Shown one piece after another: positions 2,972 to 61,077 of a stretch of DNA of 64,000 bases. Both the position numbers and the translations under genes were made by a program. The stretch's first letter is position 1; the number at the start of each line of letters is the position of its first letter. The notes beneath the pieces were generated by a model that worked only from the letters and a program-made list of their open reading frames with translations, was not told the DNA's origin and ran no database searches. This DNA is from Escherichia phage vB_EcoM_Skers, in sequence record MW748999.1. One strand, given 5' to 3'.

Positions 2972-3001
2972 AATTTTATCCTCCTTTGTTTCGATGTTTG
3001 T

Positions 3002-3029
3002 ATTATACATCCTAACATCAGCATGTCAA
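3002..3029 (-). promoter_or_regulatory. sigma70-type early promoter TTGACA-N16-TATAAT (second copy of the 1777-1804 cassette)
   Basis: Minus strand GTTGACATGCTGATGTTAGGATGTATAATACAAACATCGAAACAAAGGAGGATAAAATTATG; shares about 33 bp with the 1746-1790 cassette. Confidence 0.7.
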
Positions 3030-3051
3030 CACCTTTTTCATAAAAATTTAG

Positions 3052-3081
3052 GCAATAAAAAAGCCTCCCCGAAGGGAGGCT
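3052..3081 (-). terminator. rho-independent terminator downstream of gene 32
   Basis: Minus-strand RNA AGCCUCCC-UUCG-GGGAGGCU followed by UUUUUUAUU; 8-bp GC-rich stem with UUCG tetraloop. Confidence 0.8.
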
Positions 3082-3091
3082 GTAAAATTCA

Positions 3092-4066
3092 TTACATCGC
3101 TAACAGAGAATCCAGGTCATCCAGATCAGAAGCGGAGGAAGTACCGCCACCCAGATCCAGAGATGCCATCAGGTCATCAGCGGAAGAATCTAACGCCGTG
3201 CTAGCTGCGTTAATACCAACTACAGTGCTAGCTGCGGTCATACCAGAATCGAATGCATTCATCTGTGCGTCAAAATCGTCAAGCTGGCTGTTAATCGCTG
3301 CCGCAGCACTGGAAGCCGCAGCACCAGCTACCATAGAAACGCCCATAGTTTTCTTAAATTTGGTTTCCAGTTCATCGAACGGTTTAAACTGGCTAGGCGC
3401 TACAATCTCACTCAGATCAACCATGTTTTCCATCAGATATTTCTGATATGCTTCGTCTTCAATTTTCGGAAGCTGTGATTGCTGCATGAAACGAGAATCA
3501 TCATAGTTCTGGTGTTTATCAACCTTCTTAGCTTTCAGGAGGAAGTTAGCACCAGAGAACACACAAGTTACATCGACCGGAACTTCGCCCATATCGGTAT
3601 TCACGTTCACCATTGCAACGATCTTATCATAAATTTTCTGACCGAAGCGGAATTTGAATACCTTACCTTCATTTTCTGGTGCTTGAGGATCTTTCAGTAC
3701 CAGAATGTTTGCGTAGTAAGACGCTTTACGCTTAATCAGTTGCCATTCGGTTTTATCGGTATTGTACAAGTCTTTTTCGTTAATATATTTGCACACAGGG
3801 CAAGAATCAAAATCACCGTGGGTGCTGGAGCAGTTTTCCCAATACCATTTGCCATTAACTTTGAAGGAATGGTTTACCAGTTTCACAATCGGCAGACCGT
3901 CTTCTGTCTTAGACGGCAGGAAGCGAATCAGGGCTTCACCGTTACCTGCTGCATCAGTCTTAATCTTCCACTCTTTCGGATCTTCTTTGGAGAAACCGTT
4001 GCCACCTTTCAGTGCGGCCAGTTGAGCTTGCAATTTGGAGCTATCTTGACGACGAAACATGTTCAT
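3092..4066 (-). CDS. 32: single-stranded DNA-binding protein gp32
   Basis: Strong match to T4 gp32 by recall ([25 protein letters not shown], zinc site [10 protein letters not shown], acidic Ala/Ser/Asp-rich C-terminus); SD AAGAGG. Confidence 0.9.
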
Positions 4067-5396: not shown

Positions 5397-5651
5397 TTAA
5401 ATATCGAGAGTGTTGGTCGGTTCGTCGATCACTCCCTTCCTGAGTGTTCTATTTACTATACATTCTTGTGTGATCTTGTCAATAATGGACACCGGAATAT
5501 ACTTCTGATAGTGACCATATTCTATAGAGTTTTCCTCTACAAACTGAGTGGTCGCTTCAAGATAAGTCAATCCCTCTTCAACAACCAGTTTTTCGATTGC
5601 AAGACCGTTTGCTGTTTTGTTCGCGGCTTTTACCGCATGTTCATTAAGCAT
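5397..5651 (-). CDS. 33: late transcription co-activator gp33
   Basis: LTYLEATTQFVEENSIEYGHYQKYIP resembles T4 gp33; T4 position between dsbA and 59; start set at ATG 5651 overlapping the dsbA stop (track start 5666). Confidence 0.55.
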   Translation of the reverse strand: MLNEHAVKAANKTANGLAIEKLVVEEGLTYLEATTQFVEENSIEYGHYQKYIPVSIIDKITQECIVNRTLRKGVIDEPTNTLDI

Positions 5652-5919
5652 TGAACACCCGATCATAGAGTTCTACCGCTTCATCGCGTTCTGCTTCGAA
5701 GGTTTCGCGCTGTTGCTGGTGATACAGTTTAAACAGAATGCCCCACATTTTACCATCTACGCCTAATTCTTCTTTAGCACGCTGTTTGATCTCTTTGATC
5801 TTATCGCCATATGCTTCTTGAATGGTTTTCTGATCGCTGGCTTCTTTAATCAGTTGTGCCAGGGTATTTCCGTGTACATTTTCATCGAATACTACTTTTT
5901 CTTTTTTCTGTTCAGTCAT
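5644..5919 (-). CDS. dsbA: dsDNA-binding protein DsbA (late transcription enhancer)
   Basis: 91-aa basic protein at the T4 dsbA position; resembles T4 DsbA by recall (LIKEASD...ELGVDGKM...FEAE..VELYD.VF). Confidence 0.55.
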   Translation of the reverse strand: MTEQKKEKVVFDENVHGNTLAQLIKEASDQKTIQEAYGDKIKEIKQRAKEELGVDGKMWGILFKLYHQQQRETFEAERDEAVELYDRVFNA

Positions 5920-5924
5920 AATAT

Positions 5925-6524
5925 TTAACCCTCTTTCGTCATTAATTGAAAACCACGTTCAGCTTTTGAAATTTCGCTAGGACTTAAATCGTCACCAACA
6001 TATCCTAGCATCATTTCTCGGATAATGTCAAGTGCTTTTTCATCACCTGATTTTAACTCGAACTCAAGTTCATAATTCGCGCTTGTGTTGATATATCTAC
6101 CTATTCCTGCATAATTAAATGCATCGGTGCATATTTCAACTACGCCTATACCAGTATCAATTGTTCGAGCTACTCTAGCTGTCATAACATAAAATTGCGG
6201 TCTAAGTTGTGTTAAGTTAACACCCAAACAATTAACAAATTCAGAAAAATCTTGATAACTACAAAACACTATTTCTTCTCGGTTAAATAAACCGCTTTCG
6301 TGACTTCCATGTTTTATTAGAAATTTATTTGTCTTTTTGTCAAGACGTGCATACACTCCCTGTTTATGTAAAATATATTCTTCGTCATCATAATACGATT
6401 CTAGCTTATTATAGATTTTTCTGTCTACAATACTATAACAATCATATAACTTAGAACATGCGTCAAAAATAGACTTAAGCCCTTTGTTTGACCTTGCATA
6501 GTATTTTAATTCAAGTTCTTTCAT
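5925..6524 (-). CDS. CYTH/triphosphate-tunnel-metalloenzyme-like protein (no T4 counterpart at this position)
   Basis: N-terminal ExExK motif (MKELELKYYAR) and C-terminal alternating-acidic strand YELEFELKSGDE typical of the CYTH fold; 199 aa; tightly coupled between rnh and dsbA. Confidence 0.5.
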   Translation of the reverse strand: MKELELKYYARSNKGLKSIFDACSKLYDCYSIVDRKIYNKLESYYDDEEYILHKQGVYARLDKKTNKFLIKHGSHESGLFNREEIVFCSYQDFSEFVNCLGVNLTQLRPQFYVMTARVARTIDTGIGVVEICTDAFNYAGIGRYINTSANYELEFELKSGDEKALDIIREMMLGYVGDDLSPSEISKAERGFQLMTKEG

Positions 6525-6534
6525 ATGTCAACCC

Positions 6535-7482
6535 TTAGAACTCACCAATTTTCTGCAACATTTTAACTAACGCATTTGTTACAAAATAGTTATAAATCTT
6601 ACCGCGTGGTGCTGGTTTAGATTTCTCCCATGACTCCAGGATCTGATTCTGGATATTGTCTGGGATCTCGTCAAAGTCAATCAACTGACGGTTTTCATCA
6701 AATCGACGTGCTTCTTCCTCTGTCATCAAAGACTTTGGATCTTCGGCATCGAAAATTTGCTCTAACCATTTGGTTGCAATTGGTTTAGCTCGTTCTCCTT
6801 CCAGTCGTGAGATAATGAAATCACTACGGCACTTGATCGAAGCTACACCGTCTTTTGCGTCACCCTTAACACATTTTACCATAAGGTCTTTGTAAGGGCT
6901 ACCATATTTGCATTTCTTCCATGCTTTCTGTACTGGCGCCCACTGTTTCACGTTTTTGTATTTGTGCAACTGTGTGTAGTCACCATCGCCGGAGTTGATT
7001 AGCACCTGGCGACCTTCTACAGAAAACTTTTTAGTTAACACAGCGATTATATCATCCGCTTCAACTTTGTCAACCTTAATAACGTGATAAGGCATGTTCT
7101 CTTTAAACTCTTCGGTGATCTTATTGATCGCAGCAAAGATCATCTCCCAATCACGCGGATCTGCGTCTCGTTTTTCCTTACGGTTGCGTTTATAGTAAGG
7201 GGCGATATCACGTCGCCAGTAACCTTTGCTTGAATCAAAGGCAAGTACCGTAATTGGGTATTGCTCTTTGAATTTTGTCATATTATAACGCATGGTGTCA
7301 AGAATAAGATGACGGATCATGCCTTCACTAATAGGGTCTTCCGGTTTAAAGGTATGCGAGATAGTAGCAATCATAAGCTGCGACATATCAATCAAATGCA
7401 CACCTTCCGGCAGTTTATCTTCTGGAGCATCGAAGAAATCATTAAGTGTAGCGGTAGTTTTTGTAAACGGGTTATACGTCAT
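6535..7482 (-). CDS. rnh: RNase H (FEN-1-like 5'-3' exonuclease)
   Basis: Strong match to T4 RNase H by recall (GYWRRDIAPYYKRNR, VIKVDKVEADDIIAVL, GDGDYTQLHKYKNVKQW, RGKIYNYF). Confidence 0.9.
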   Translation of the reverse strand: MTYNPFTKTTATLNDFFDAPEDKLPEGVHLIDMSQLMIATISHTFKPEDPISEGMIRHLILDTMRYNMTKFKEQYPITVLAFDSSKGYWRRDIAPYYKRNRKEKRDADPRDWEMIFAAINKITEEFKENMPYHVIKVDKVEADDIIAVLTKKFSVEGRQVLINSGDGDYTQLHKYKNVKQWAPVQKAWKKCKYGSPYKDLMVKCVKGDAKDGVASIKCRSDFIISRLEGERAKPIATKWLEQIFDAEDPKSLMTEEEARRFDENRQLIDFDEIPDNIQNQILESWEKSKPAPRGKIYNYFVTNALVKMLQKIGEF

Positions 7483-7484
7483 AA

Positions 7485-7670
7485 TTAAGTTCTCTCCACT
7501 CTCACAACAACAGACTCATCAAACGAGCTAGATACTTCACGATCATACCCGTATTTCTCCATAACTCGCAGAATTGCATTGTTTAATTCGGCACGGAAAT
7601 AATTGTAATCCTTATCTGGGATTCTGTCAACTACCCATTTTGCACCATCTGACAAATCAAATTTAACCAT
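7485..7670 (-). CDS. hypothetical small protein upstream of rnh
   Basis: ORF track; SD AAGAGGA upstream; first gene of the minus-strand block divergent from gene 34. Confidence 0.5.
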   Translation of the reverse strand: MVKFDLSDGAKWVVDRIPDKDYNYFRAELNNAILRVMEKYGYDREVSSSFDESVVVRVERT

Positions 7671-7708
7671 AATATATCATCCTCTTTTGTTTCTATCAAG
7701 CCTTATTT

Positions 7709-7716
7709 TATAAATA
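7709..7716 (+). promoter_or_regulatory. T4-type late promoter TATAAATA for gene 34
   Basis: Exact TATAAATA 29 nt upstream of ATG 7745, followed by SD AAGGAG. Confidence 0.7.
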
Positions 7717-7744
7717 TGAACATACTATAAAAGGAGACCCAATA

Positions 7745-10700
7745 ATGGCAGATTTTTCTCAACATTTCAAGGCCACATTTGGCTTTGATGCTGGTAATGA
7801 AAAGGTCGTCAATGTAGCATTGGCTGATAAGAATGTCAACACCGATGCGGTCAACGTTGAATTTTTCAATTACCATAATGGTATTACTCAGTATGACACA
7901 ACTCGCGGTTATGATCAATACGGAACTACAATCTATCAAAACCGCCCGTATTATGCAAAAGAAGATATCGCAAAACCAGCAGGTGACTTTGACCCGACTA
8001 AATGGCAAGCACTGCGCACGGACCCACGTTGGGATTATGTTGCAGCAACTTCCGGCGATACTCCTTTAAAGTCCGGTGATTATATCGCAGCGGACTGTCA
8101 GTTTGCAAACTTGACATTCTCAATGCCTACTAATCCGGCAGAGGGCGACACTATAACAGTAAAAGATATCGGTGGCAAGTGCGGTGTTAATGAGTTATCG
8201 TTCCTTGCGGCTGGTCATGAGTTCTATCATAACGGTGTGGTAAACAACCGCAAATGGTATTGTACTACCCCTTATGCAATGAACTACTTCATTTTTGCTC
8301 GCAATCGCTGGCACGTTTACCAGACGGGAACGGAGCCACGCGGGGTATATGCACAGCCATCTATTGATCCGATCCAGATGCAAAACGGTGATCAGGTATT
8401 CCGCCGTAGTTCTTTGGGTAACATTGTTTTGATGCTTCCTAAGTTTGCTAATAACGGTGATATGATCCAGACTACCGATCTTGACGGATTGACTGCAACC
8501 AACCATGTTACGGTAAAAGTGCATGAAGGTGCGCAAGAACAATCGATCGGTACTTTCGGGGTAAAAGAAATTGTTGGTAAGCGTAGCGGTCATGGTGTAT
8601 TCATCTTTGACAAACCGGAAAACTTATGGCGTTTGTGGGATGGCGATCAGTCTGTTCGCTTGAATCCTATCATTAGTGATACTCGCTTATCCCCTAATAG
8701 CTATGTTGCTGTATTTGGTGATCGTGATGTTACCTTGACTTTACCGACCAATGTCGAGCCGGGTGATCGTATTCAAGTTTCTATGCAGTATATGCACGGA
8801 AACCAGACTTGCCGAATCATTACCTCAGAAGAGGATACAAAAATCCTTATGCAGAAAAACATGGTTCAGTTTCCTAAGCGTAGCGAGTACCCATTCAATG
8901 GGACCGATACATGGACGGGAGTGTCTGAATTGTCTTTCAACGCTGCAAATGATTATGTACCTTATCTGGAGTTCTCTTATTCAGAAGGTGATGATGGTAA
9001 GAAATACTGGTTGGTGGCACATGCTCACCCGATTGTAGAACGAGTAGATCCGACTCGTAAAGATCGTGTTGGTGTAATTGCACTGGCTACCCAGGATGAA
9101 ACAAACAAAAACCATGAAGATAATCCTAGCGACGAAGTTGCGGTGACTCCAAAGGTTCTGGCTAACAAAACAGCCAACGAAACTCGACGCGGTATTGCTC
9201 GCATTGCAACTCAAGCGGAAACGCATCAAGATACTGGTTCCAGCTTCCTGGATGATGTTATCGTTACACCTAAAAAGTTAAATGACTGTGTTGCTACCGA
9301 AGACCGTCGTGGTGTGATGGAAATTGCAACTCAACATGAAACAAACGAAGGTTTAGACGATACCCGCGCAATCACTCCTAAGAAGTTAGAAGAACGTCGC
9401 GCGTCCGAGGATCTTGCTGGTATCGCTGAAATTGTTCAGGTAGGCGGTAATGCTGCCGCTCTAAGGGGTGAAGCTGGTACAGGGATCTATAATATCAATG
9501 ACCATGCTAAAATTGTTACACCGCAAAACATCAACGAAGTTAAGGCGACCGAAACTTCCCGTGGTGTTGGGTATCTGGCGACGGATGAGGAAGTTCAAGG
9601 GGCGACTGAATCAACCCCACAAGATGCATTGCTTATCACTACTCGCACGTTAACCAAGCGTACTGCCACCGAATCCCGTACTGGTATCGCTGAAATTGCT
9701 ACGCAGGAAGAAACTAACTTAGGCCAAAGTGACAACCATATCATCACGCCTAAAAAGCTACATACTCGCCGCGCAACGGAAACTTTACACGGTTTAGCAG
9801 AAATTGCAACTCAGTCTGAATTTGACGCAGGTCGTGACGATGCTCGCATTTCTACCCCATTGAAGATTAAAACCTTCTTTGAGAATGCACAGCGTTTGAA
9901 AGTAGATCCGACTCAGGGGCTTAACCTTACTGGTGATTTGTGGCAAGGTATCATGATCAGCGGTCTTGATGCAACCGAAGATACAAAAGGTGTCGCGAAA
10001 GTTGCAACTACTCAGCTTACAGACGCAGGAGAAGATGACGCTACGATCATTACTCCTAAAAAGCTGCAAGGCAAAAAGGCCACCGAAGGTAAAGAAGGTA
10101 TTATCCGAGTTGGTACTCAAGACGAAACCGTAGCTGGTACTATGGACAATGTAGCAATTTCTCCGAAGAACTTCAAATATGTTGTTCAGACAGAGGATAC
10201 ATGGAAAGCAACCGAATCGCGTCGCGGATTCCTGAAAGTAGCAACACAAGAAAACTGTTTTGTTGGTGACAATCTGCAAGGTTCTACTCAAGATCTTGAT
10301 AACTATCAGCATGACGGGATTGCGGTAACTCCGAAAGGATTAAACTACGCACTTGCTAATTTCTTACCTAAGATGGCAACCGCTCAGAATAGTTTGAAAT
10401 TGGGTAACGTAGAGGCCGCTAAATGGGCGCGTAGAGACATTGACCAGACCATAGAGAGCAATTACACGTTTAATAAAAACGTTAACGTGAAGGGCGATTT
10501 AGAGTGCTTAAAATCAGGTTCCTTTGAAACTCTGTCTGTGACTAAGAACTCTACTGATGATCCGAGTAATGGTCATCTGGTGTTGGGTGAGCGTGGAGTT
10601 GACGGTCACACCGGAATTACTCTGCATGGCACAACCGCATCGGAAGGCATGGAAAACTCATGGTCTATTATCGTTGGTGGCACTGGAACATCTCAAGTTG

Positions 10701-11485
10701 TTGATAGTAATGCTATCGCTTTCGGTAAAATCAATGATGGTGGAGTCGTCGAGCATTACGCCTTTGCTATGGAACACAATGGCGACGCGACAGCATATAG
10801 AGACTTTATTGCAGGTCGTAACCTGTATGCGAAACAAGGCGGTTTATACATTGTTGATCAGTCTAATCCGGCGATGACTCGCTCAGAAGACGGTATGTTG
10901 AATATCGGGCACGGTGGAAGTGTTAACATCAAAGCAGGTTATCAGACGCTTACTACAGAGATTGCCGGACAGAAATATCAGATCGTCCACGCAGGAAACG
11001 CAGACGAAGTTCTTAATCGTCAGTTTGTTAAGAATGCTGGCGATACGATGACCGGAAAGCTGATGATGGATAATGCGTCTATTGTATCAGTTAAGCATGA
11101 AGCGATCGCTACTACTGCGCCAGCAATTGGTAACATTGGCTTCTGGAACATGCGAGTAACTACCCAAAACATCAAAGAAACCTACCCAGAAAAGAAAAAT
11201 GGTACATTGATGCAATGGGGTACTGATGAAAACGGCCTTACCCAAATCTGGTCGCCTGATGGTACTCATAAGCATTATATCCGTTCTGGTACAGATGGTC
11301 AATGGACCGCATGGGGCGAAATTTACACCAAACAGAACAAGCCTACCGCTCAGGAAATCGGGGCAGTGGTTGCCGAAGGTGGTTTGATGAACTCTATGAC
11401 GGTTCGTGATTGGATCAAAGTTGGTAATGTTAAAATCATCGCCAATAATCTGACTCGTACCGTAGACTTTATCTGGGAAGACTAA
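7745..11485 (+). CDS. 34: long tail fibre proximal subunit gp34
   Basis: 1246-aa ORF first in the 34-35-36-37 order; repeated TPKKL/ATE..G.A.IAT motifs typical of gp34. Confidence 0.85.
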   Translation: MADFSQHFKATFGFDAGNEKVVNVALADKNVNTDAVNVEFFNYHNGITQYDTTRGYDQYGTTIYQNRPYYAKEDIAKPAGDFDPTKWQALRTDPRWDYVAATSGDTPLKSGDYIAADCQFANLTFSMPTNPAEGDTITVKDIGGKCGVNELSFLAAGHEFYHNGVVNNRKWYCTTPYAMNYFIFARNRWHVYQTGTEPRGVYAQPSIDPIQMQNGDQVFRRSSLGNIVLMLPKFANNGDMIQTTDLDGLTATNHVTVKVHEGAQEQSIGTFGVKEIVGKRSGHGVFIFDKPENLWRLWDGDQSVRLNPIISDTRLSPNSYVAVFGDRDVTLTLPTNVEPGDRIQVSMQYMHGNQTCRIITSEEDTKILMQKNMVQFPKRSEYPFNGTDTWTGVSELSFNAANDYVPYLEFSYSEGDDGKKYWLVAHAHPIVERVDPTRKDRVGVIALATQDETNKNHEDNPSDEVAVTPKVLANKTANETRRGIARIATQAETHQDTGSSFLDDVIVTPKKLNDCVATEDRRGVMEIATQHETNEGLDDTRAITPKKLEERRASEDLAGIAEIVQVGGNAAALRGEAGTGIYNINDHAKIVTPQNINEVKATETSRGVGYLATDEEVQGATESTPQDALLITTRTLTKRTATESRTGIAEIATQEETNLGQSDNHIITPKKLHTRRATETLHGLAEIATQSEFDAGRDDARISTPLKIKTFFENAQRLKVDPTQGLNLTGDLWQGIMISGLDATEDTKGVAKVATTQLTDAGEDDATIITPKKLQGKKATEGKEGIIRVGTQDETVAGTMDNVAISPKNFKYVVQTEDTWKATESRRGFLKVATQENCFVGDNLQGSTQDLDNYQHDGIAVTPKGLNYALANFLPKMATAQNSLKLGNVEAAKWARRDIDQTIESNYTFNKNVNVKGDLECLKSGSFETLSVTKNSTDDPSNGHLVLGERGVDGHTGITLHGTTASEGMENSWSIIVGGTGTSQVVDSNAIAFGKINDGGVVEHYAFAMEHNGDATAYRDFIAGRNLYAKQGGLYIVDQSNPAMTRSEDGMLNIGHGGSVNIKAGYQTLTTEIAGQKYQIVHAGNADEVLNRQFVKNAGDTMTGKLMMDNASIVSVKHEAIATTAPAIGNIGFWNMRVTTQNIKETYPEKKNGTLMQWGTDENGLTQIWSPDGTHKHYIRSGTDGQWTAWGEIYTKQNKPTAQEIGAVVAEGGLMNSMTVRDWIKVGNVKIIANNLTRTVDFIWED

Positions 11486-12819: not shown

Positions 12820-12827
12820 TATAAATA
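12820..12827 (+). promoter_or_regulatory. T4-type late promoter TATAAATA for gene 36
   Basis: Exact TATAAATA 34 nt upstream of ATG 12861. Confidence 0.65.
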
Positions 12828-35414: not shown

Positions 35415-36806
35415 TCAAATATAGTCTACTCGATACCGCGCACGGGTAACACCCACATATAATAACTGCATTGCCAATTCAAAGTCAACATTGTCTGTAC
35501 ACATGCAAGGAGTATACAGGAACACGCGGTCTACGCTGATCCCTTGTGACTTATGAATGGTGCAAGCTGGTAATGCTTTTACATTCAAGAACATACGCTT
35601 CATCGTCCAGAAGGAATCCCAATCTGGTTTAAATTTTGGATTCTCTTTCTTCATTTCGCGATATTGTCCGGCGACCGTATTCAGATAGATAGAGAAAATG
35701 TTCTTCTGACGTTGTTCTGTCAGAATGTTGATTTCTACTAAATCTGGTTTATCTGTAGTGATTCCGACTGCATCTAAACCGACTTTCTGATTTAGGATTT
35801 CTTTGTCTTCGTCATCATCGACGCTTTCCACTTTCAGAGTATAGCCTAAAACTGGTTGCGGATCTACCCCCGTGCAACGTAATGTAAATTCGCGCGGGAT
35901 GACCTCTTTAACTCGGATCATCTCACCATTGTTAAAAATAACATTGGGAATCTTCTTCCCGCGTTCATCTCGCAGATATTCGATCAATGGTTCCTGAGTA
36001 ACCAGAATTTCATCTACAATCACTGGTTCATCGGTGTTATAAACGCGCTTACGCACAATTTCATTGAGTTTTTCGACGCTCTTGTTAGTGTAGGCCAGAA
36101 TACGGTTTTCTAGCAGGTCTTCCGGCGTTTTAACGGTTTCGAAATAATGCTTCATAAACTCCGGCAGAGTTGAGCTATGGAATACACCCTCGTTGCCGCA
36201 CTGCTTTTCGAATACCCATTTACCATTACGGACAGCGGTCGCCACATCAATGATCGGTGCATTAGATCGTTTAATTTCTGTCAACTCCACGTTTTGAAAA
36301 TTTTCATCCGTGAAGAAAGGAGAGATCGACGTTGCACCGCTCGGATCAACTGGTCGTAACTGGTGCGGATCGCCAACTGCAATAACAACAATTCGACCGT
36401 TGATACTCTTCATGAGAATATCAAATAGTTTCTTATCGACCATACTCGCTTCATCAACAATGATGATCTGAACATCATCTAGCTTAGGAGTATCTTTTTG
36501 TTCAAATACTTGAGTATCTTCATAGTTGGTTGGATTTAGTCGCAGTAGTGCATGTAAAGTAAATGCTTGACGACCTACCGCCTTACTCAAAACTTTTTTA
36601 GCCTGGTGGGTAGGCGTTGCCAAAACCACACCAGTTACACCACGGCGGACCATTTCCTGAACAATGAATTTCATCATTGCGGTTTTACCAGTACCCGCCG
36701 CACCACGGACAGTTGTATGCTTCTTTTGTTCAATACGTTTCATTAGAACATCAAAAGCATGTTTTTGCCCGTCTGTTAACATATCGAAAGTTAATACTCT
36801 GCTCAT
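35415..36806 (-). CDS. dda: Dda DNA helicase (SF1B)
   Basis: Walker A GAAGTGKT, IIIVDEASMVD, KRSNAPIIDVATAVRNGKW, YVGVTRAR; strong match to T4 Dda by recall. Confidence 0.9.
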   Translation of the reverse strand: MSRVLTFDMLTDGQKHAFDVLMKRIEQKKHTTVRGAAGTGKTAMMKFIVQEMVRRGVTGVVLATPTHQAKKVLSKAVGRQAFTLHALLRLNPTNYEDTQVFEQKDTPKLDDVQIIIVDEASMVDKKLFDILMKSINGRIVVIAVGDPHQLRPVDPSGATSISPFFTDENFQNVELTEIKRSNAPIIDVATAVRNGKWVFEKQCGNEGVFHSSTLPEFMKHYFETVKTPEDLLENRILAYTNKSVEKLNEIVRKRVYNTDEPVIVDEILVTQEPLIEYLRDERGKKIPNVIFNNGEMIRVKEVIPREFTLRCTGVDPQPVLGYTLKVESVDDDEDKEILNQKVGLDAVGITTDKPDLVEINILTEQRQKNIFSIYLNTVAGQYREMKKENPKFKPDWDSFWTMKRMFLNVKALPACTIHKSQGISVDRVFLYTPCMCTDNVDFELAMQLLYVGVTRARYRVDYI

Positions 36807-41698: not shown

Positions 41699-43111
41699 TT
41701 AGAAAGTCATGTTATTTGCTAGCTCGTCGAGTTTTTCTCGTTTCTCGGCTTGCTGTGCGCTTTGTGGTTTAACTTGTGCATTCTCCTGATCTGCGATCTG
41801 GTTTGGTACTTCATACCAACGCTGATTGCCTTTCTTCACACCAACGTTAAACCGTGAATAATAGTTCTTGTCACCGTAACGAGACTTGATCTGCTTCATG
41901 AGTTGGACGCCCATTTTAGCCAGGTCTTCGGTTTCGATAACACCCAACATAAAGTCGGCAGTAGCCGGAAGACCTGCTGATTCAGCGGTATCACTCATGT
42001 TAAGGTCGGAAGCATCCCAACCCGCGCGGGTAGTCTGTGCCGCAGTCCAACCAACAACATCCCACTTAACAAAAAATCCTCGCAGTTCTTCCGCAATCGC
42101 CTTAACTAGTGTGTAACTATTTTCAGAGTATACACGCAAGCGAGACGATGCGCAAATCCCAAGATAGTCAACAATCACAACATCAGGTTTAAACTGTTTC
42201 TTGAGTCGCAATTCATTCATTAACGCCTCAAAGTGATTGGAGTTTGCGCCACCAGTCGGATACTGCTTGATCATCAATTTTCCAACCGGACGATCTCCGA
42301 TCTTCTTATTCTTAACACGCTTCATGCGTGCGGAATATTCCGCAAAAGAAACATTACCATTATCCAATTCATCTAATGTAATGTCAAGCAAGTTTGCGTC
42401 GATACGTTTTGCTACTACATGCTCTGCCATCTCCATTGAGATATACAATACATCATAACCACATTCCATATAATCCGCAGCAAGAGAACACAAGCCAAGC
42501 GATTTACCAACGTTTACACCAGCAAGCAACACATTTAGCGTTTTTCTTTCCGCCCCTCCTTTCGTGATTTTATTCAACATCGGCAGCTTAAACGGGATCT
42601 TATTCGCCTTAGTCTGATATAGCAAGAATCGTTTTTCAAAGTCATTAAACCAGTCATGACCTACATCAGAATCAAACGTAATGGATAGTGCTTCCTGCAT
42701 GATCTCAGGAATAGCACCCTCACTCGGCAATTTCTTATTCTGTTTCTCTTTTGGTAGTTGTGCGTTCGCCTGAATCTCTAGCGCCCGTGACATTGCATTG
42801 TACATAGCACGGTCACGAATAAATTTTTCGGTTTCCTTCATTAACCAATCAAGGTCTTCCGGTGTATTCTCCAGCGAATCGAGAAGATTTTTAGCCCCTT
42901 CATATGTTGTCTGATTGCCTCTCTCCTTGTCTAAAGCAATCTGTAATGCAGTTGGCGTAGGAATATTGGAATATTCGTCTACGTGCTTTTTAATCAGCTT
43001 ATAAATCAGTTTTTCTTCGTCTTCGGTGAAGTAGTCCGCTTTAAGGTGAGGCCATACATTCGTAAAGAATGCGCCATTGTAAATCAACTGTGAAAAGATA
43101 GTTTTAATCAT
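41699..43111 (-). CDS. 41: replicative DNA helicase gp41 (DnaB-like)
   Basis: Walker A GVNVGKS, RecA-like core; 470 aa (T4 475 aa); position between 61 and uvsX. Confidence 0.9.
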   Translation of the reverse strand: MIKTIFSQLIYNGAFFTNVWPHLKADYFTEDEEKLIYKLIKKHVDEYSNIPTPTALQIALDKERGNQTTYEGAKNLLDSLENTPEDLDWLMKETEKFIRDRAMYNAMSRALEIQANAQLPKEKQNKKLPSEGAIPEIMQEALSITFDSDVGHDWFNDFEKRFLLYQTKANKIPFKLPMLNKITKGGAERKTLNVLLAGVNVGKSLGLCSLAADYMECGYDVLYISMEMAEHVVAKRIDANLLDITLDELDNGNVSFAEYSARMKRVKNKKIGDRPVGKLMIKQYPTGGANSNHFEALMNELRLKKQFKPDVVIVDYLGICASSRLRVYSENSYTLVKAIAEELRGFFVKWDVVGWTAAQTTRAGWDASDLNMSDTAESAGLPATADFMLGVIETEDLAKMGVQLMKQIKSRYGDKNYYSRFNVGVKKGNQRWYEVPNQIADQENAQVKPQSAQQAEKREKLDELANNMTF

Positions 43112-54368: not shown

Positions 54369-55394
54369 CTAACTTTTTGCGCTATTTACTTCGGCTAAAA
54401 GTTCATCAGAAATACGCTTGACCGCCGCAAGTTCTTCCGGTTCTAGGTTTTGTTCTTCCAGATATTCATAGACCATCTGAATAGTGCTTTTAACTTCAAT
54501 AACACCTGTTTCCTGTGATGCGCTACTCTCCAGCTTATGGACCACTTTTAGCTTGTGCACAACGGACTCTAACGCGCTTTCTAACTTAGTTAACCCATTA
54601 TCAGCGACCGTTGCGATAAGACGCACACTAAGCCCTTTAAAGCGTTCTACGTCGATTTTATCATCTGACGGGTAAGTGATACGCACATGATAAGTTTTGT
54701 CATTCTGAATAAACTCTTTTTTGTGTGTATCGGTATCGAATACCCAAAAACCACGAGGGTCGTTTTCGTCACCCGCCGTTAGTGTGTATGGTGTACCGAT
54801 ATATGTTACGTTACCGCCATCGCTGATAGTATGAAAATGACCGGAAAACACTTCACGGTATTTCTTTAGGAAGTCCGCGCTATAACCTTCGGATTTTAGT
54901 CCTTTATAGAAATAGTAGCCAGACAATTCCCAATGGCCTACACAATATTCACTGAATGAGTTTTGAATAAACTCTAAAATCTCTGATTTATTGTCATCAC
55001 AAAACCACGGGAACAGATCAAATGATACACCATCAAAGGTAACTGTTTCCGGTTTATCGATAACCTTAATGCAATCATACTGGCTTAACACTTCACGCGG
55101 TGCGTTAGGCTGGATCTTGTTTCGTTTAAACATATCATGATTCCCGACCGTGGTATAACAAGTAATATCAGCCTCTTCCAGTAACGGGATGACCTTAGTA
55201 CGGTTAAATTTCATGGTTTCATGGGTAATTGCTTTTCGGCAATCAAACCAATCCCCTGTTTGAATCCATGTCTTAATATTATGCTCTTTGGAGTATTCAA
55301 CCGCTTTCTTGATGGTATCAAGAATATACTCATGCACCCACGGATCATCGCCACCGATACCAGTATGCAGATCACCCAAAAGCAAAATTTTCAT
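54369..55394 (-). CDS. 47: recombination nuclease subunit gp47 (Mre11/SbcD-like)
   Basis: Calcineurin-like phosphoesterase motifs LLGDLH, GDWFD, GNHD; 341 aa (T4 339 aa). Confidence 0.9.
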   Translation of the reverse strand: MKILLLGDLHTGIGGDDPWVHEYILDTIKKAVEYSKEHNIKTWIQTGDWFDCRKAITHETMKFNRTKVIPLLEEADITCYTTVGNHDMFKRNKIQPNAPREVLSQYDCIKVIDKPETVTFDGVSFDLFPWFCDDNKSEILEFIQNSFSEYCVGHWELSGYYFYKGLKSEGYSADFLKKYREVFSGHFHTISDGGNVTYIGTPYTLTAGDENDPRGFWVFDTDTHKKEFIQNDKTYHVRITYPSDDKIDVERFKGLSVRLIATVADNGLTKLESALESVVHKLKVVHKLESSASQETGVIEVKSTIQMVYEYLEEQNLEPEELAAVKRISDELLAEVNSAKS

Positions 55395-55435
55395 AGTCTC
55401 TTCCTCTCTTCGTTTTCGATGCTCTCACTATATCA

Positions 55436-55473
55436 CAGAAAAATAAAAAGGGAAACCCCTTTCAGAGTCTCCC
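55436..55473 (-). terminator. rho-independent terminator
   Basis: Minus-strand RNA GGGAGAC-loop-GUUUCCC (one G-U pair) followed by UUUUUAUUUUU. Confidence 0.6.
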
Positions 55474-55484
55474 TTATAAAGCCA

Positions 55485-55799
55485 TTACAGCATACTTAAT
55501 ACCGTTTGCCGTGTACTAATCCACATAGCAGAAAGCAGTTCTGGCGTGTGTGGCTGTTTGTAGATATCACGTAACTTTCCGATAGCGTAGATATACGCAT
55601 CACGGTTATCATCGATGATAGCTTGTTCAGCCCACCGCTTAAGGCGTGCAATCTCTCGCGAGTTCTTACGCAAGATCTTTTCCGCTTTCTTAGCGGCTTT
55701 AGCCTCTAGTTCTGCTTGTACTTTGTCTACTTCACTCACTGCAATCTGGTCATGCTGTTCATCGTAAGTCATGTTATTTTCCTTCTGGGATATAATCAA
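55485..55799 (-). CDS. hypothetical protein (104 aa)
   Basis: ORF track. Confidence 0.5.
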   Translation of the reverse strand: MIISQKENNMTYDEQHDQIAVSEVDKVQAELEAKAAKKAEKILRKNSREIARLKRWAEQAIIDDNRDAYIYAIGKLRDIYKQPHTPELLSAMWISTRQTVLSML

Positions 55800-56007
55800 T
55801 TATTAAAGAAAATTCATCTTCTGATACATTATAGCTATGTGAGATTGTACCCGTCAAGACCTCAAGATCCGGTGATTTGATATTGCACGGATCGATAATC
55901 ACCGGAACGCCGCAATCTCTCAAAAATAATTTGGCGAAATACGGCACAAGGTCAGTTTCAAACTCTGCTTCTTCCAGCAAACGGGAAATGTTAATTTTCA
56001 ATCTCAT
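55774..56007 (-). CDS. hypothetical protein (77 aa)
   Basis: ORF track. Confidence 0.45.
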
Positions 56008-56524
56008 AAAATTGGTCCAGGCTAGGCAATTCCTCGGTCAATACATCTTCAACCTTTGGCGCTTTCGGTTTATTGACCGATTCCTCGTAGTTGTTGATTT
56101 TATCGTAAATGTCCTGTATGAATGCCTCATCAGCAATCTGGCACATATCAGCGTCGCGTTCGTCATATACATGATGCACAAAATATTTGTATTTTGCGGC
56201 TGTCGCTGTTCTCTCTTTTTTAATGCGCTGTACAAAAGCATTAAAGCACGCTTGCGTGATGTAAGCATGAGGATTTTTATACTTTGTCTCGTCAAAATTA
56301 ATCAAACCCTTGACCGCCGCTTCGATTCCGTCGTCGATCATTTCTTCGCGCCATGTTTGACTATAACCAGAAAAGTTAAAACGACGTGATAGATTTTTAG
56401 AGATTTGCATAATTGCTAGGCCGATTTGATCGCTCATTGGAACTTGCCGACCTTCTGCTGCAATTCGTTGTTTCCAACGGCAAATTTCTTCGTAAAGCTC
56501 TTTATTGTTTACATAATCAGACAC
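55991..56524 (-). CDS. 55: late sigma factor gp55
   Basis: Strong match to T4 gp55 by recall ([67 protein letters not shown]). Confidence 0.9.
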
Positions 56525-56564: not shown

Positions 56565-58034
56565 CTATTCCCCATTACCATTATACTTTCTTTGTTTAGT
56601 TATCCACACTCTAACCATCTCTACTGATTCACCGTCAGACGGGTCAAGAGTTTTTCCCTTTTTCTTCATGCGGTACTTAAATCCGTTAAATCTTGCATTC
56701 TCTTGTTCGTTAAAGTCGAACATCTTTTTAAATGATTTTCGCCCTTTACGCTCACCACATTCTAGCGGAATCATTCGGTCTGTTATTACATTGGCATTAG
56801 GTAGAAACGTTTTTAGATAATCGACCAACGCCCAATCAGGAACATATAGATTAACATTCTCCTTGCTCTCGTTGTCTCTCAGGTTACAACGCAAACATAA
56901 TTGAAATGCTGGTTCCAGATAATCAGACACATGACGCGCTTTCAAAAACTCGTTTGTTGGGAGATCGCAACTATTAGCAAGACCTTTTAAAATATCAATC
57001 TCCCATCGTTGAGGGTTAAAGCTGAACATCACAGCAACATTTTTATGATGAATGTAAGAGTTAAGACCATAAGATCCGTAAGGTATCCGCTCACCAATAC
57101 CATTTGTACACGCTTCACGGTCCCGATTCACGGTATAAATGAAGTCATCGCCACATTCATTTTTAACCATATCAACAAGACGTTCAAAGGTATTGTTTGT
57201 TTCTGACTGGTGACGAGACCATCGTTCGGAGTCCGTCATAAGGATGATGTTAACTCTATCTGTATTTTTATACTCTTTGAAATATAGTCTGGATTCTAGC
57301 GCACTCGGAACAAAATCGCAATTTGCATAGTATCGTAGATACTTCCCACTATATGTATCAAAGAGATTTGCACATGCTATCGTAACCTTTTTAAAGTCTC
57401 CCCACGTACCGTGTTTGTTATCGTTCAAGAAAACAATTTTCGACCCATTCTTCCGGTGTCCTTCGTTATGTTTTACCATAACGTTGATTTTCTTCTCTAA
57501 TAACGCCTCATAAAGCCCTCTAAGAGAAGAATCGATCATATCAGTACCATCCTTTGCACTTTCTATCTTTTCTTTGATAGCGGCCTTCTCAGAGTCTTTT
57601 AGAACTAAGTTCTGTAGGCATTCCGATTCGTCGGCGATTGGTTCGCAATGCTTCGTGATAAGTTCAAGATTAGACTTAAACGGATACTCATTAAATTCAA
57701 CCAGTTGAGGAACTTCATCAATATAAAGAGCATATTCACTAAACATTTTTGAACGTTCCATATTAGATAACGCTGTATGTGTGATGAATATCACATCAGC
57801 ACCATCTTTAACTGATTGCATTATCGACGCTTGCACTGTCTTAAGGCTTCTTAGTCTGGTGCTATCAATCAAGACAGCACGACCGCCCATTCTTTTAAAC
57901 TTATTGTAAGATTGTTCACTTAAAACACGAGATGGCGAAGCAATAACCGCTTTTTCTTTTGTCTCTAGGACGTGGGAAAGTATAGCATCCGTTTTCCCCG
58001 CCGCTGGCAATGCGATTAATGTTTCAATCTTCAT
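56565..58034 (-). CDS. P-loop NTPase of unknown function (489 aa)
   Basis: N-terminal Walker A ALPAAGKT and Walker B-like LYIDEVPQ; Lys/Arg-rich C-terminal tail; no confident family assignment. Confidence 0.5.
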   Translation of the reverse strand: MKIETLIALPAAGKTDAILSHVLETKEKAVIASPSRVLSEQSYNKFKRMGGRAVLIDSTRLRSLKTVQASIMQSVKDGADVIFITHTALSNMERSKMFSEYALYIDEVPQLVEFNEYPFKSNLELITKHCEPIADESECLQNLVLKDSEKAAIKEKIESAKDGTDMIDSSLRGLYEALLEKKINVMVKHNEGHRKNGSKIVFLNDNKHGTWGDFKKVTIACANLFDTYSGKYLRYYANCDFVPSALESRLYFKEYKNTDRVNIILMTDSERWSRHQSETNNTFERLVDMVKNECGDDFIYTVNRDREACTNGIGERIPYGSYGLNSYIHHKNVAVMFSFNPQRWEIDILKGLANSCDLPTNEFLKARHVSDYLEPAFQLCLRCNLRDNESKENVNLYVPDWALVDYLKTFLPNANVITDRMIPLECGERKGRKSFKKMFDFNEQENARFNGFKYRMKKKGKTLDPSDGESVEMVRVWITKQRKYNGNGE

Positions 58035-58339
58035 TAGAAACCCTTACGTCGTGCTTTCTGGCATTTCTTGATCATTTTATCAGAAATTTCGCGCTTAGGT
58101 GCAATCTCTTTCACACCGAAAGCACTAATGCCAAATTCAGAGAGAATATATTCAACTAACAATTCACGCACACGCGCTTTACCGATATTCACGCCGTTAT
58201 TTTTCAGATATGTCTGGCCTTCGACTTGCATCAGATCTAAATCTGCGTCGGTAATATTGATTTCTTCCATGCGCCCAAATCGAGAATAAACCATGTGTGC
58301 GATTGCATTGTGTACTAACATAATATATTCCTCACTCAA
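58034..58339 (-). CDS. hypothetical protein (101 aa)
   Basis: ORF track. Confidence 0.5.
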   Translation of the reverse strand: MSEEYIMLVHNAIAHMVYSRFGRMEEINITDADLDLMQVEGQTYLKNNGVNIGKARVRELLVEYILSEFGISAFGVKEIAPKREISDKMIKKCQKARRKGF

Positions 58340-58490
58340 GAATTACTTAATGATACTTACTTTACCAGATCCGTGACAATGAGCACAACACCCATCACCA
58401 CGCAATCCTGTTCCGTTACAGTGTTTACACTTCTTCAACGGTAAAGTCATTATAGCAAATAAAGCAATAATGAACACCGAAACTAAATTC

Positions 58491-58760
58491 TCAATAATCA
58501 TAAATCGCCCTCAGTTCTTTATAGCCTCCAATGTGCTCGTTGTCAATGAATATCTGGGGGTATACAAACCGGAGGCTCTTTGAGTTCAGCCTCCCCGCCA
58601 GTTCTTCAATCATATCACGGTCGGGAATAATGTCAACCCCGACCTGCTTGAATACTGGTTTAAGTGTATACGGAATACCCAGATCATCCAGTAGCTTCAT
58701 TGCACTAATACAACCATAACAATGATAAGCCTCTTTCGGTATACCGTATATCTCGATCAT
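58491..58760 (-). CDS. nrdH: glutaredoxin-like protein NrdH
   Basis: 89 aa with CYGC redox motif in a glutaredoxin-like context (IEIYGIPKEAYHCYGCISAMKLLD). Confidence 0.75.
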   Translation of the reverse strand: MIEIYGIPKEAYHCYGCISAMKLLDDLGIPYTLKPVFKQVGVDIIPDRDMIEELAGRLNSKSLRFVYPQIFIDNEHIGGYKELRAIYDY

Positions 58761-59257
58761 TTCTCAGCCTTTAATCTTTCTAGTTCTTCTTCCAGTTCCT
58801 TGATCCGTTGGTCACGTTCAAAGTCACGCTGTATCTTAGTGGCGAATACTCGTTTAAACTGATTGTAATCATCGATTTTAAACACTTCTTCTTCGCCATA
58901 GCGACGCACAGAAACTTCGTAGTTATTGAAGAATTGTTGCATCATTGCTTCGGATGATAGCTCTGCTGATACCACTTTAAAATATTGATCTTCGGTAGGT
59001 GAAAACCAATTACAAGCATAAAGATAAACCTTTTCATTGTCTGGACACTGGTAAGCCTTACCATCGATTTCAATCACAGAAACATATTCAGGTATACTAG
59101 ATGAATCAATAGCTAAGACTTTAAACGCACGGTCCCCGATAAACTCGGAGATCACACGATTCGCATCACTGGTTGCAAATGCTTTACGCGCTTGTTCGTT
59201 TTTCCACTGATAGGTCATACCAACAACAAACATATTACCAACCTCGCTCTTTACCAA
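58757..59257 (-). CDS. paralogous family member P4 (WExGKTY module plus coiled-coil tail)
   Basis: MTYQWKNEQARKAF...AFKVLAID...VIEIDGKAY...NWFSPTEDQYFKVV; C-terminal IKELEEELERLKAEK. Confidence 0.55.
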   Translation of the reverse strand: MVKSEVGNMFVVGMTYQWKNEQARKAFATSDANRVISEFIGDRAFKVLAIDSSSIPEYVSVIEIDGKAYQCPDNEKVYLYACNWFSPTEDQYFKVVSAELSSEAMMQQFFNNYEVSVRRYGEEEVFKIDDYNQFKRVFATKIQRDFERDQRIKELEEELERLKAEK

Positions 59258-60059
59258 TCAAAAATTCAACTTCACGACGTTTAATGTCTTCTTGAAGGTC
59301 TTTAATCTTCTGGCGATCTTGCATTATTTCATCCATCTTGTCAAGTGCCGCAATGAAATCATCGAAACGTTCAAAGGTTTTACCTTCATTTGCTTCGCCA
59401 AATTTAACCATTGTCAGGCCATAACGACTACTAAAAAGACGCTTCAACTGTCCAACGATCTTAGAATCAGTGGTTATAACTTCCAATTCTTCTACTTCTT
59501 GAAAGAATTTTCTATCAGAATCAATAAACCAGCTAGTTCCTTTATGGTCGCTATCTTCTGTTGCACTCATTAGAGTATGGTCTTTACCATCAATTTCAAT
59601 TACATTAACTTGCCCACATAGACTAACATTTTTAACAGTAAAAGGTCTATAATTTATTGCTCGTGCAATAACATAATTAAGGTTAGATACGTTTTCAGCA
59701 TAATGACAGAAGTCGGTCATAGCATTCGCATCTTTCCAAGTATAAGTTTTACCAACTTCCCATTTCTGGGGAACTTCTTCAACTTCACGAAAGAATTTTC
59801 GATCGAATGGACTAAAGAAATATGTTGCAGTCCAAATGTCTTTTCCTGTAGCAGTTTTCGCCGTATGATAAACACCGTCTAGCTCTATTGCATTAATCCA
59901 ACCGTTACCCTCGATCTCGATGATGGTAAATGGCTTGTCACCAATAGCTGCACTAATATCGCTGTTAAGTGGAGAAAGAACACCTTCTCCGTTAGTAATA
60001 AACTCAGTTTTAGCGTTTTCATCTTTCCAAGTGTAAGTTTTACCAATTTCCCATTTCAT
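59235..60059 (-). CDS. paralogous family member P3 (two tandem WExGKTY modules)
   Basis: MKWEIGKTYTWKDENAKTEF... and internal QKWEVGKTYTWKDANAMTDF...; each followed by RPF.V, IEIDG and DRKFF.EVEE. Confidence 0.55.
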   Translation of the reverse strand: MKWEIGKTYTWKDENAKTEFITNGEGVLSPLNSDISAAIGDKPFTIIEIEGNGWINAIELDGVYHTAKTATGKDIWTATYFFSPFDRKFFREVEEVPQKWEVGKTYTWKDANAMTDFCHYAENVSNLNYVIARAINYRPFTVKNVSLCGQVNVIEIDGKDHTLMSATEDSDHKGTSWFIDSDRKFFQEVEELEVITTDSKIVGQLKRLFSSRYGLTMVKFGEANEGKTFERFDDFIAALDKMDEIMQDRQKIKDLQEDIKRREVEFLIGKERGW

Positions 60060-60071
60060 AATATATTCCCC

Positions 60072-60551
60072 TTAACCGATTTTATCAAGTTCGTTTAATG
60101 CTTTCTCTGCTTCCTGTATAGCTTGCACCCTTTCCGGCATTTTGTCAAGAAAATCTTTCAACTCTTCAAAACTGGAGATATGACGCAAGGCGTTAGCACC
60201 GATAGCTGCATGTGATTTGCATTCAAAGCGGATTTTATAATTATCCATAGCCAGCTTGAGTAGGTCCATTAGTTTAGATTCTTCTGGAATACTAATTTCT
60301 TCAAATCTGCTACGGTCGTGATCCAGAAACCAACAATATAGACCTACATCGGTTGAACTCATATAAGTTCCATCATGAAGATATACAGATCGCACGTATC
60401 CTTTTTTCGCATCAACCGACGCAACTTTAAACGGTAATCGCAGATATTTCAAATAATCAACATCATACCATTTAAAAAATTGGTTTGCATCTTTTACATC
60501 TTTCCATACATAGGTCTTACCAGCTTCCCATTTCATAATATCATCTCTCAT
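60072..60551 (-). CDS. paralogous family member P2
   Basis: MKWEAGKTYVWKDVKDANQFF...LPFKVASVD...FLDHDRSRFEEI; helical C-terminus. Confidence 0.55.
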   Translation of the reverse strand: MRDDIMKWEAGKTYVWKDVKDANQFFKWYDVDYLKYLRLPFKVASVDAKKGYVRSVYLHDGTYMSSTDVGLYCWFLDHDRSRFEEISIPEESKLMDLLKLAMDNYKIRFECKSHAAIGANALRHISSFEELKDFLDKMPERVQAIQEAEKALNELDKIG

Positions 60552-61077
60552 TTTTGATACGTGATTCTAATTGGATCATACGGTCGCGCGTTTGTTTGTA
60601 TTCTCGGATAGCACCGATCCGGCTAGGCATACCATCCAGTACGCTCTTAATACCTTCTAGGGTAGTAATTTTGGCAATGCTATTATGTAACCCCATCTTA
60701 TCGATCAACTGAATGTCGTAGGCTTCCATAAGCAGACCCAGGCGTTCTAAAGTTAGGTCTTCTTCTTTTTCTTCTGAATCTGGAATCTTAGGTTCAATAG
60801 TAACTTCGGTAAAGAAACGACGCTCACCCGACCAAAACCACACACCAGAACAACCAATAGGGGATTCTTTTAACGTCATAGAGTCGAAATCACTACCAAT
60901 AATAGTAATTTCTCTAACATCACCATCATCGTCAAGGTCTTCTACCCTAAACGGGCGACCAGCCAACAAGTCAACAATACATCTGTTAATAAACGACGAA
61001 AATTTAGTCAGTTCGGCTTTCGACGCTTCGCATTCGATCTTGTAAGTTTTACCAACTTCCCATTCCATAATAATCAC
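60541..61077 (-). CDS. paralogous family member P1
   Basis: MEWEVGKTYKIECEASKAEL...RPFRVEDL...WFWSGERRFFTEV; helical C-terminus. Confidence 0.55.
   Translation of the reverse strand: MIIMEWEVGKTYKIECEASKAELTKFSSFINRCIVDLLAGRPFRVEDLDDDGDVREITIIGSDFDSMTLKESPIGCSGVWFWSGERRFFTEVTIEPKIPDSEEKEEDLTLERLGLLMEAYDIQLIDKMGLHNSIAKITTLEGIKSVLDGMPSRIGAIREYKQTRDRMIQLESRIKNER

Follow-up and report, generated by a model that had tools for sequence, protein, structure and literature searches.

Escherichia phage vB_EcoM_Skers carries an open reading frame (ORF) of 489 amino acids (aa) between gene 55 and nrdH, at a position for which T4 has no counterpart, and the locus raises the question to which family its product belongs and what this product may do for the phage. 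The stretch of DNA analysed (the window) comprises 64,000 nucleotides (nt) of sequence record MW748999.1. The original prediction, made from the letters of the window, had described the product as a large P-loop NTPase of unknown family. The observation is real, but it was mis-described: by its sequence motifs and its predicted fold, the protein is a complete superfamily-2 (SF2) helicase, and it is a conserved accessory helicase of many T4-related phages that is lacking in T4. We consider it fairly probable that the protein is an active, ATP-dependent SF2 nucleic-acid motor with the layout of XPD/DinG (Rad3-type) helicases minus the iron-sulfur (Fe-S) domain, and that it serves as an early/middle accessory DNA helicase for replication, restart or recombination; of this reading, the role in the phage, the polarity and DNA as the substrate are what we infer.

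Sequence motifs and conservation

The ORF is present as predicted, with an ATG start, between gene 55 and nrdH (Table 1). Two alignments were used for its product, one of 26 orthologues (33-74% identical) and a wider one of 88 relatives (down to ~18% identity); a profile search yielded 1341 cluster representatives of the helicase family at E<=1e-3. Pfam DEAD matched residues 11-130 with 28.6 bits (gathering threshold 26; E 1.4e-6), and the 88 relatives gave matches to DEAD in 59 members and to ResIII in 36. The motifs I, Ia, Ib, II, III, V and VI are found in the canonical SF2 order and are conserved in the 26 orthologues, with a motif Ia-like SxxLSxQS at residues 35-42, FITH at residues 83-86, and the consensus sequences TIAxAN (motif III-like, residues 218-223), PYNPHGLNxY (motif V-like, residues ~317-327) and FQLCxRxNxR (motif VI, residues 377-386). 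The sole invariant positions in the wider alignment are K14, D106, E107, G323, N325, Q378, R382 and R386; these coincide with SF2 positions in Walker A and Walker B and in motifs V and VI, so that the ATPase site is under selection. The protein is confirmed as a P-loop NTPase. The Walker A sequence ALPAAGKT had been recognised before, although it lies at residues 8-15 and not 9-16, and the Walker B-like LYIDEVPQ had been named correctly. The ~350 aa that had been described as free of helicase motifs contain the conserved motifs III, V-like and VI and, in the model described below, a second RecA-like domain.

No match to NCBIfam was obtained for the 489-aa protein, the match to Pfam AAA_34 was weak, and searches of PDB sequences with the single sequence and with the orthologue profile gave nothing useful. 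A broader profile matched generic SF2 proteins of the PDB, over RecA domain 1 only (DEAD-box proteins, PriA, Mfd, reverse gyrase, NS3, UvrB, and XPB).

The C-terminal tail (residues 425-489) is rich in Lys and Arg, as had been noted, and contains predicted helices at residues 443-458 and 468-486, with E445 and W477 invariant in the 26 orthologues; it is a possible nucleic-acid-binding module. This region varies among the relatives, with weak helix-turn-helix matches in forms of ~520-570 aa, and with AEP and PriCT-1 domains in forms of ~800 aa. A C-terminal helix-turn-helix was considered and dropped, as the matches are confined to some relatives and are all sub-threshold.

Predicted fold

The structure predicted by AlphaFold2 with the orthologue alignment (mean predicted local distance difference test, pLDDT, 87.2; predicted template-modelling score, pTM, 0.76) has a second RecA-like domain, which carries the motif V-like sequence and the arginine-rich motif VI, and its best fold matches in a structure comparison are XPD, DinG and CasDinG. 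Foldseek, a search suggested with the original prediction, agreed independently, with XPD/DinG/CasDinG for all of the top 16 matches (E 1e-10 to 2e-7) and the defence helicase Hna next, which speaks against an unknown family. The length aligned to XPD/DinG (316-347 residues) is greater than that for other SF2 proteins, and DEAD-box proteins align over one domain only (~140 residues). The next-best matches in structure or sequence are Snf2-family proteins (CSB, Ino80), HsdR, and Mfd.

An insert of 105 residues (residues 111-215) begins right after Walker B and comprises three strands and four to five helices in the model. The arch domain of the XPD/DinG family likewise follows motif II as an insertion in helicase domain 1 (PMC10450177). 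By its position, its kinds of secondary structure and the aligned length, the insert is probably an arch-like domain, and the longer alignment to XPD/DinG fits an insert of this size.

Several points weigh against this assignment and against the role proposed above. The template-modelling scores (TM-scores) of the model to XPD/DinG are only ~0.45-0.5. The stretch from motif Ia to motif II, where canonical members of the XPD/DinG family carry a 4Fe-4S domain with four Cys, contains neither this domain nor a vestige of it: there is no Cys before residue 130 (C130 and C380 are the only invariant Cys) and too few residues are available (~87 between Walker A and Walker B; ~40 between motifs Ia and Ib). 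In XPD/DinG, the Fe-S domain and the arch form the DNA pore and wedge; with this Fe-S wedge domain absent, unwinding may differ in mechanism or may not occur. The sequence likeness to known helicases is limited to RecA domain 1, with generic SF2 proteins and not XPD/DinG as the best matches: XPD/DinG are not among the best 60 PDB profile matches, and Pfam DEAD_2 (PF06733) and Helicase_C_2 (PF13307) were found neither for the protein at E<=1 nor among the 25 most frequent families of the 88 relatives. Furthermore, T4 thrives without the gene, and all members of the family are as yet predicted helicases.

With an XPD/DinG-like layout in fold and nothing XPD-specific in sequence, the protein is named here an SF2 helicase with XPD/DinG-like layout; its sequence does not place it in that family. 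It is much smaller than XPD, Rad3 and DinG (compared especially with the Fe-S-free CasDinG of type IV-A CRISPR and firmicute DinG), lacks an N-terminal domain, the Walker A lying at residue 8, and ends in a basic helical C-terminal tail; its polarity and substrates are predicted ones.

Table 1. Helicase gene, protein motifs, neighbouring genes and putative promoters in the window.
Feature	Position	Strand	Residues	Remarks
489-aa SF2 helicase gene	56565..58034	-	1-489	ATG-start ORF, stop codon included; orthologue of RB49p044
Motif I / Walker A, ALPAAGKT	57990..58013	-	8-15	P10, G13, K14, T15 invariant in 26 orthologues
Motif II / Walker B, LYIDEVPQ	57705..57728	-	103-110	D106, E107 invariant in both alignments
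Probable arch-like insert in RecA domain 1	57390..57704	-	111-215	between motifs II and III
Motif III-like, TIACAN	57366..57383	-	218-223	T218 invariant and N223 nearly so in 26 orthologues; consensus TIxxAN in 88 relatives
Motif V-like, YGSYGLNSY	57054..57080	-	319-327	RecA domain 2; G323, N325 invariant in 88 relatives
Motif VI, FQLCLRCNLR	56877..56906	-	377-386	Q..xR...R type; Q378, R382, R386 invariant in 88 relatives
Basic helical C-terminal tail	56568..56762	-	425-489	26% K+R, pI 9.8 (core pI 6.2)
Gene 55, late sigma factor	55991..56524	-		phrog_234, E 4.8e-63; RB49 annotation; 40 nt downstream of helicase stop
gp55.2 homologue, 95 aa	58034..58321	-		ORF extends to TTG at 58339; Pfam DUF7570, E 1.4e-28
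nrdH	58491..58760			
Dda gene	35415..36806			
gp41 gene	41699..43111			
Sigma-70-like promoter match, TTGTCA-18-TATCAT	58350..58379	-		consensus match only; just upstream of 55.2-helicase pair
Stronger sigma-70-like match, TTGACA-16-TATGAT with TG	58636..58609	-		consensus scan only

Distribution and synteny

The window belongs to an RB49-type phage (Krischvirus), and is 99% identical to Escherichia phage RB49 and ~57 other Krischvirus genomes over the helicase region. The orthologue in RB49 is annotated as 'hypothetical protein', and the record of phage W115 alone says 'putative helicase'. The ORF family is phrog_2467 (E 2.6e-174), for which the function label in PHROGs is unknown. Close copies are automatically named 'DEAD/DEAH box helicase (family/domain-containing) protein' by the NCBI and UniProt pipelines, most submitters use 'hypothetical protein', and no paper on this helicase family was found in the literature.

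Full-length orthologues were detected by tblastn in 243 phage records (58 identical or 99% identical, ~185 at 35-42% identity), which excludes a chance ORF. The carriers comprise Krischvirus; RB43/RB16-type phages with their Enterobacter, Cronobacter, Citrobacter and Klebsiella relatives; the Aeromonas phages 44RR, 31, 25, phiAS4/5, PX29 and CC2; Proteus, Morganella, Serratia, Yersinia and Erwinia phages; and, more distantly, the Agrobacterium jumbo phage Atu_ph07. Only 63 records under Escherichia, Shigella or 'Enterobacteria' match, which leaves the numerous T4- and RB69-type phages without the gene, and from these record counts its absence from the whole T4 genome is inferred. In T4, an unrelated gene for 87 aa, 55.1, occupies the slot between 55 and 55.2, and no tblastn match to the helicase was obtained in the syntenic T4 DNA, in agreement with the earlier remark that no T4 counterpart is recognised at this position. 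An origin of the helicase as a grown or diverged T4 55.1 is rejected, as there is no similarity.

CC2, PX29, Proteus Pm5461, Cronobacter LPCS28, Serratia 92A1, Erwinia Cronus and 44RR all share the gene order nrdD-nrdG-nrdH-...-55.2-helicase-55-a-gt.5-a-gt.4-47-46, and the place of the helicase in the 46-47-55-nrd cluster for replication, recombination and nucleotide metabolism is kept in at least nine genera. The identities to the window proteins in the same phages are 35-42% for the helicase, 34-65% for gp55, and 42-56% for gp47; the divergence of the helicase thus tracks that of gp55 and gp47, which fits a long vertical inheritance with loss in some lineages. The GC content of the helicase gene is similar to that of the neighbouring genes. 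A restriction of the gene to T4 relatives without hydroxymethylcytosine was also considered and is rejected, since in Erwinia phage Cronus (Tevenvirinae) this locus contains the helicase together with an alpha-glucosyltransferase gene.

Pairing with gp55.2 and expression signals

The small ORF directly upstream encodes a homologue of T4 gp55.2 (42% identity, E 7e-20), and its stop overlaps the helicase start as TAATG at 58034. The coupled stop-start of the original prediction, which had named no strand, is thereby found; as both ORFs are on the minus strand, the small ORF precedes the helicase in transcription and does not follow it, and with a more likely length of 95 aa than of 101 aa: the ATG at 58321 is the likely start, preferred over the TTG at 58339 because a GAGGAA Shine-Dalgarno sequence stands ahead of it and RB49p045 is annotated with 95 aa.

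T4 gp55.2 inhibits topoisomerase I of E. coli (PMC4396842). A search with a model of the 55.2 family located 55.2 directly upstream of the helicase, abutting or overlapping, in seven of ten phage loci, those of RB43-type phages included. In the other three (44RR, Serratia 92A1, Erwinia Cronus), two to five small ORFs separate the two genes, and in T4 55.2 is present but the helicase is not. An obligate pair of helicase and 55.2 is weakened by the three non-adjacent loci and by 55.2 standing alone in T4, and for the same reasons the adjacency may reflect synteny and not function. Loss of topoisomerase I favours R-loops, and E. coli DinG unwinds RNA:DNA hybrids. An unwinding of RNA:DNA hybrids is also known for CasDinG (PMC10450177). 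That the helicase handles R-loop structures arising from the action of gp55.2 on topoisomerase I is conceivable, at a low probability.

In the RB43-type phages (RB43, locus extract 5484..9143; Klebsiella phage phi1_146002, extract 7484..11143), long tail fibre genes and not gene 55 lie downstream of 55.2 and the helicase; this region is rearranged, and the pair stayed together. In Aeromonas phage 44RR2.8t, ORF049c (187 aa; locus extract 3441..4004) overlaps the helicase start and is named 'DprA-like DNA recombination-mediator protein' in RefSeq; no Pfam match at E<=0.01 was obtained for this neighbour in Aeromonas phages.

Two sigma-70-like promoter matches precede the helicase on its strand (Table 1), no terminator-like site was seen by consensus scan between the helicase and gene 55 on the minus strand, and no T4-type late promoter TATAAATA was found by motif scan in the 55.2-helicase-55 cluster. 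These scans fit an early/middle co-transcription of the helicase with 55.2 and 55. Exact matches to TATAAATA occur only twice in the window (7709..7716 and 12820..12827, both on the plus strand), fewer than the shuffled expectation of 5.5, and each closely precedes a large ORF on the plus strand (7745.. and 12861..).

Distant relatives fused to a primase-polymerase

Forms of 750-900 aa make up about one third of the best 150 relatives. The helicase core of the ~800-aa forms aligns with residues 1-417 of the phage family, arch-like insert included (hhalign probability 100%, E 9e-53), and is followed by a C-terminal AEP primase-polymerase (PrimPol) and PriCT-1, a domain order that is unusual for a primase-helicase; the C-terminal extension shows invariant Asp residues in an LDxDGG-like motif and a GxD motif, and PriCT-1 matches. 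The same residues are invariant in the helicase core of the phage protein and of the long forms (phrog_31024-like), whereas the phage protein has a 65-residue basic tail and no primase domain, and its phage is lytic with a DnaG-type primase, gp61.

Alphaproteobacterial genomes yielded 46 long-form genes in total, with as many as four in one genome (Terasakiella brassicae). A serine resolvase is encoded nearby in 16 loci, and three separate clusters of tyrosine integrases in 7, 4 and 5 loci; long-form genes also adjoin DUF6641 and DUF6626. The simplest explanation for a helicase-PrimPol fusion that is encoded close to recombinases, at times in multiple copies, is a replication protein of a mobile element. 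The long forms probably serve an as yet undescribed integrative element as its replicase, and they may represent an unrecognised replicase type of such elements. Among the phages, gp191 of Atu_ph07 (762 aa; locus extract 5995..8283) matches the long form over the helicase core and fits it in length, these two points being the ones checked. The orthologue of Klebsiella phage phi1_146002 (475 aa; extract 6001..7428) has no primase domain and is annotated 'DNA primase'; this label is not justified for the short form and looks like an error, probably transferred from the fused family.

From the fusion and the context of the relatives, the family most likely acts on DNA, especially in replication; for the phage protein this is a suggestion drawn from its relatives. 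A bolder proposal, to which we assign a small chance, starts from the SF2-helicase-PrimPol proteins found beside integrases and resolvases in alphaproteobacteria: these would be an undescribed class of replicases, and the phage protein would be their initiator helicase in stand-alone form. It would open origins or R-loops for the initiation or restart of replication in RB49-, RB43- and 44RR-type phages, perhaps together with the topoisomerase I inhibitor gp55.2, whose inhibition should favour negative supercoiling and R-loops. These phages would then have an initiation route that is missing in T4.

Proposed role and alternatives

T4 is the textbook model of phage replication and has three helicases, gp41, Dda and UvsW. 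The last is listed in a table of T4-like core genes (PMC2993671). The window encodes Dda and gp41 (Table 1), gp61 primase, UvsX, gp43, and gp46/47; as Dda and gp41 are separate ORFs, the 489-aa protein is an additional helicase. No orthology to gp41, Dda or UvsW was found, with UvsW appearing as a generic SF2 structural match only. The three T4 proteins (UvsW, SF2; Dda, superfamily 1B; gp41, DnaB-like) are phage-encoded replication/recombination helicases likewise, and UvsW resembles the 489-aa protein also in being an SF2 protein of ~500 aa.

For the accessory DNA helicase favoured here, the gene would be transcribed with the early/middle 55.2-55 cluster, and the protein would bind single-stranded DNA in the cleft across its two RecA domains. 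Hydrolysis of ATP via K14 and D106/E107 with the arginines R382/R386 would drive translocation on single-stranded DNA, probably 5'->3' as in XPD/DinG, and duplex DNA, perhaps also RNA:DNA hybrids, would be split against the arch-like domain, with the basic tail adding nucleic-acid affinity. The protein would thus act in phage replication, restart or recombination beside gp41, Dda and UvsW (the latter taken from the T4-like core list). Many T4 relatives (RB49, RB43, 44RR, CC2, PX29, and the Proteus, Serratia, Cronobacter and Erwinia phages among them) carry this extra conserved helicase with an XPD/DinG-like fold and no Fe-S domain, and its role would shed light on differences among them in replication, restart or R-loop handling. 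As a very small SF2 helicase with a probable arch and without Fe-S, it would be a useful minimal model of unwinding. For annotation, phrog_2467 and the 'hypothetical proteins' of RefSeq can already be relabelled as SF2 (XPD/DinG-like) helicases.

A different substrate is suggested by some of the sequence searches: DEAD is the sole Pfam match above threshold, the best PDB profile matches are the DEAD-box proteins Mss116, DDX52 and DDX42, and the gene adjoins that of the late sigma factor. The protein might accordingly be a DEAD-box-type RNA helicase or ribonucleoprotein remodeller that acts on phage or host transcripts, or on R-loops only. We regard this as unlikely, since the Walker A starts at residue 8 and the seven residues ahead leave no room for a Q motif; the motifs II, III and VI read DEVP, ACAN and QLCLRCNLR (QLCxRxNxR) and not DEAD, S-A-T and HRIGRxGR; the whole-protein fold ranks XPD/DinG well above the DEAD-box proteins with their match over one domain; and relatives are fused to a DNA primase-polymerase. 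Similarly improbable in our view is a double-stranded-DNA translocase or protein-displacing remodeller (Snf2/Mfd/HsdR-like), which would not unwind but might, for instance, remove proteins in front of forks or polymerases; the CSB, Ino80, HsdR and Mfd matches, the weak AAA_34 match, and the missing Fe-S strand-separation wedge of XPD are in its favour.

A role in conflict, as an anti-defence protein or a superinfection-exclusion motor akin to defence helicases instead of a replication/recombination enzyme, has as its basis the structural neighbours CasDinG, Hna, DdmD and ZorD, the accessory nature of the gene and its absence from T4, and the host-modifying ORFans of the T4 55.x region, e.g. 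55.1 and 55.2 (PMC4396842). It is doubtful on several counts. PADLOC gave no significant match (the sole one, at E 0.0087, is irrelevant), and only weak N-terminal matches for the relatives (CasDinG, Cas3, PbeA); there is no nuclease or other effector domain; and the locus shows stable, vertical inheritance in different genera, its divergence tracking that of gp55 and gp47, unlike typical counter-defence genes with their fast turnover. The anti-phage helicase-nuclease Hna (PDB 9yhn) is host-borne and ends in a nuclease, whereas the phage protein is phage-borne and lacks this C-terminal domain, and neither the Hna entry nor the PADLOC models matched the phage protein in sequence. The reading of the original prediction, a P-loop NTPase of wholly unknown family and without helicase features, would agree with the lack of NCBIfam or single-sequence PDB matches, the PHROG label 'unknown function', and the prevailing 'hypothetical protein' of the phage records. 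It falls, and we give it hardly any weight, in view of the Pfam DEAD match above threshold, the conserved SF2 motifs through VI, the two-RecA-domain model with its XPD/DinG-like fold, and the existing automatic 'DEAD/DEAH box helicase' names.

Neighbouring genes

A 52-aa ORF (58343..58501, minus strand; phrog_3931) lies between the gp55.2 homologue and nrdH. It encodes an N-terminal hydrophobic helix followed by CKHCNGTG...CAHCHGSG, i.e. two CxxCxGxG zinc-knuckle motifs that resemble the central domain of DnaJ; the Pfam matches are weak, and the counterpart in W115 is annotated as a putative membrane protein. Four successive ORFs of 166, 274, 159 and 178 aa are located between nrdH and nrdG (58757..61077, minus strand), which correspond to RB49p048-051, all 'hypothetical'. 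Their common module opens with W-E-x-GKTY-x-WKD and is present in two copies in the 274-aa ORF; no Pfam families matched, and by their sequences the four ORFs look like a tandem paralogue array.

In RB49, the HNH/AP2 homing endonuclease gene RB49p040 is inserted between gene 47 and a-gt.4 (locus extract 2941..3495). The window contains ~90 bp at this site (55394..55485), as does W115, which represents a presence/absence polymorphism of the mobile endonuclease.

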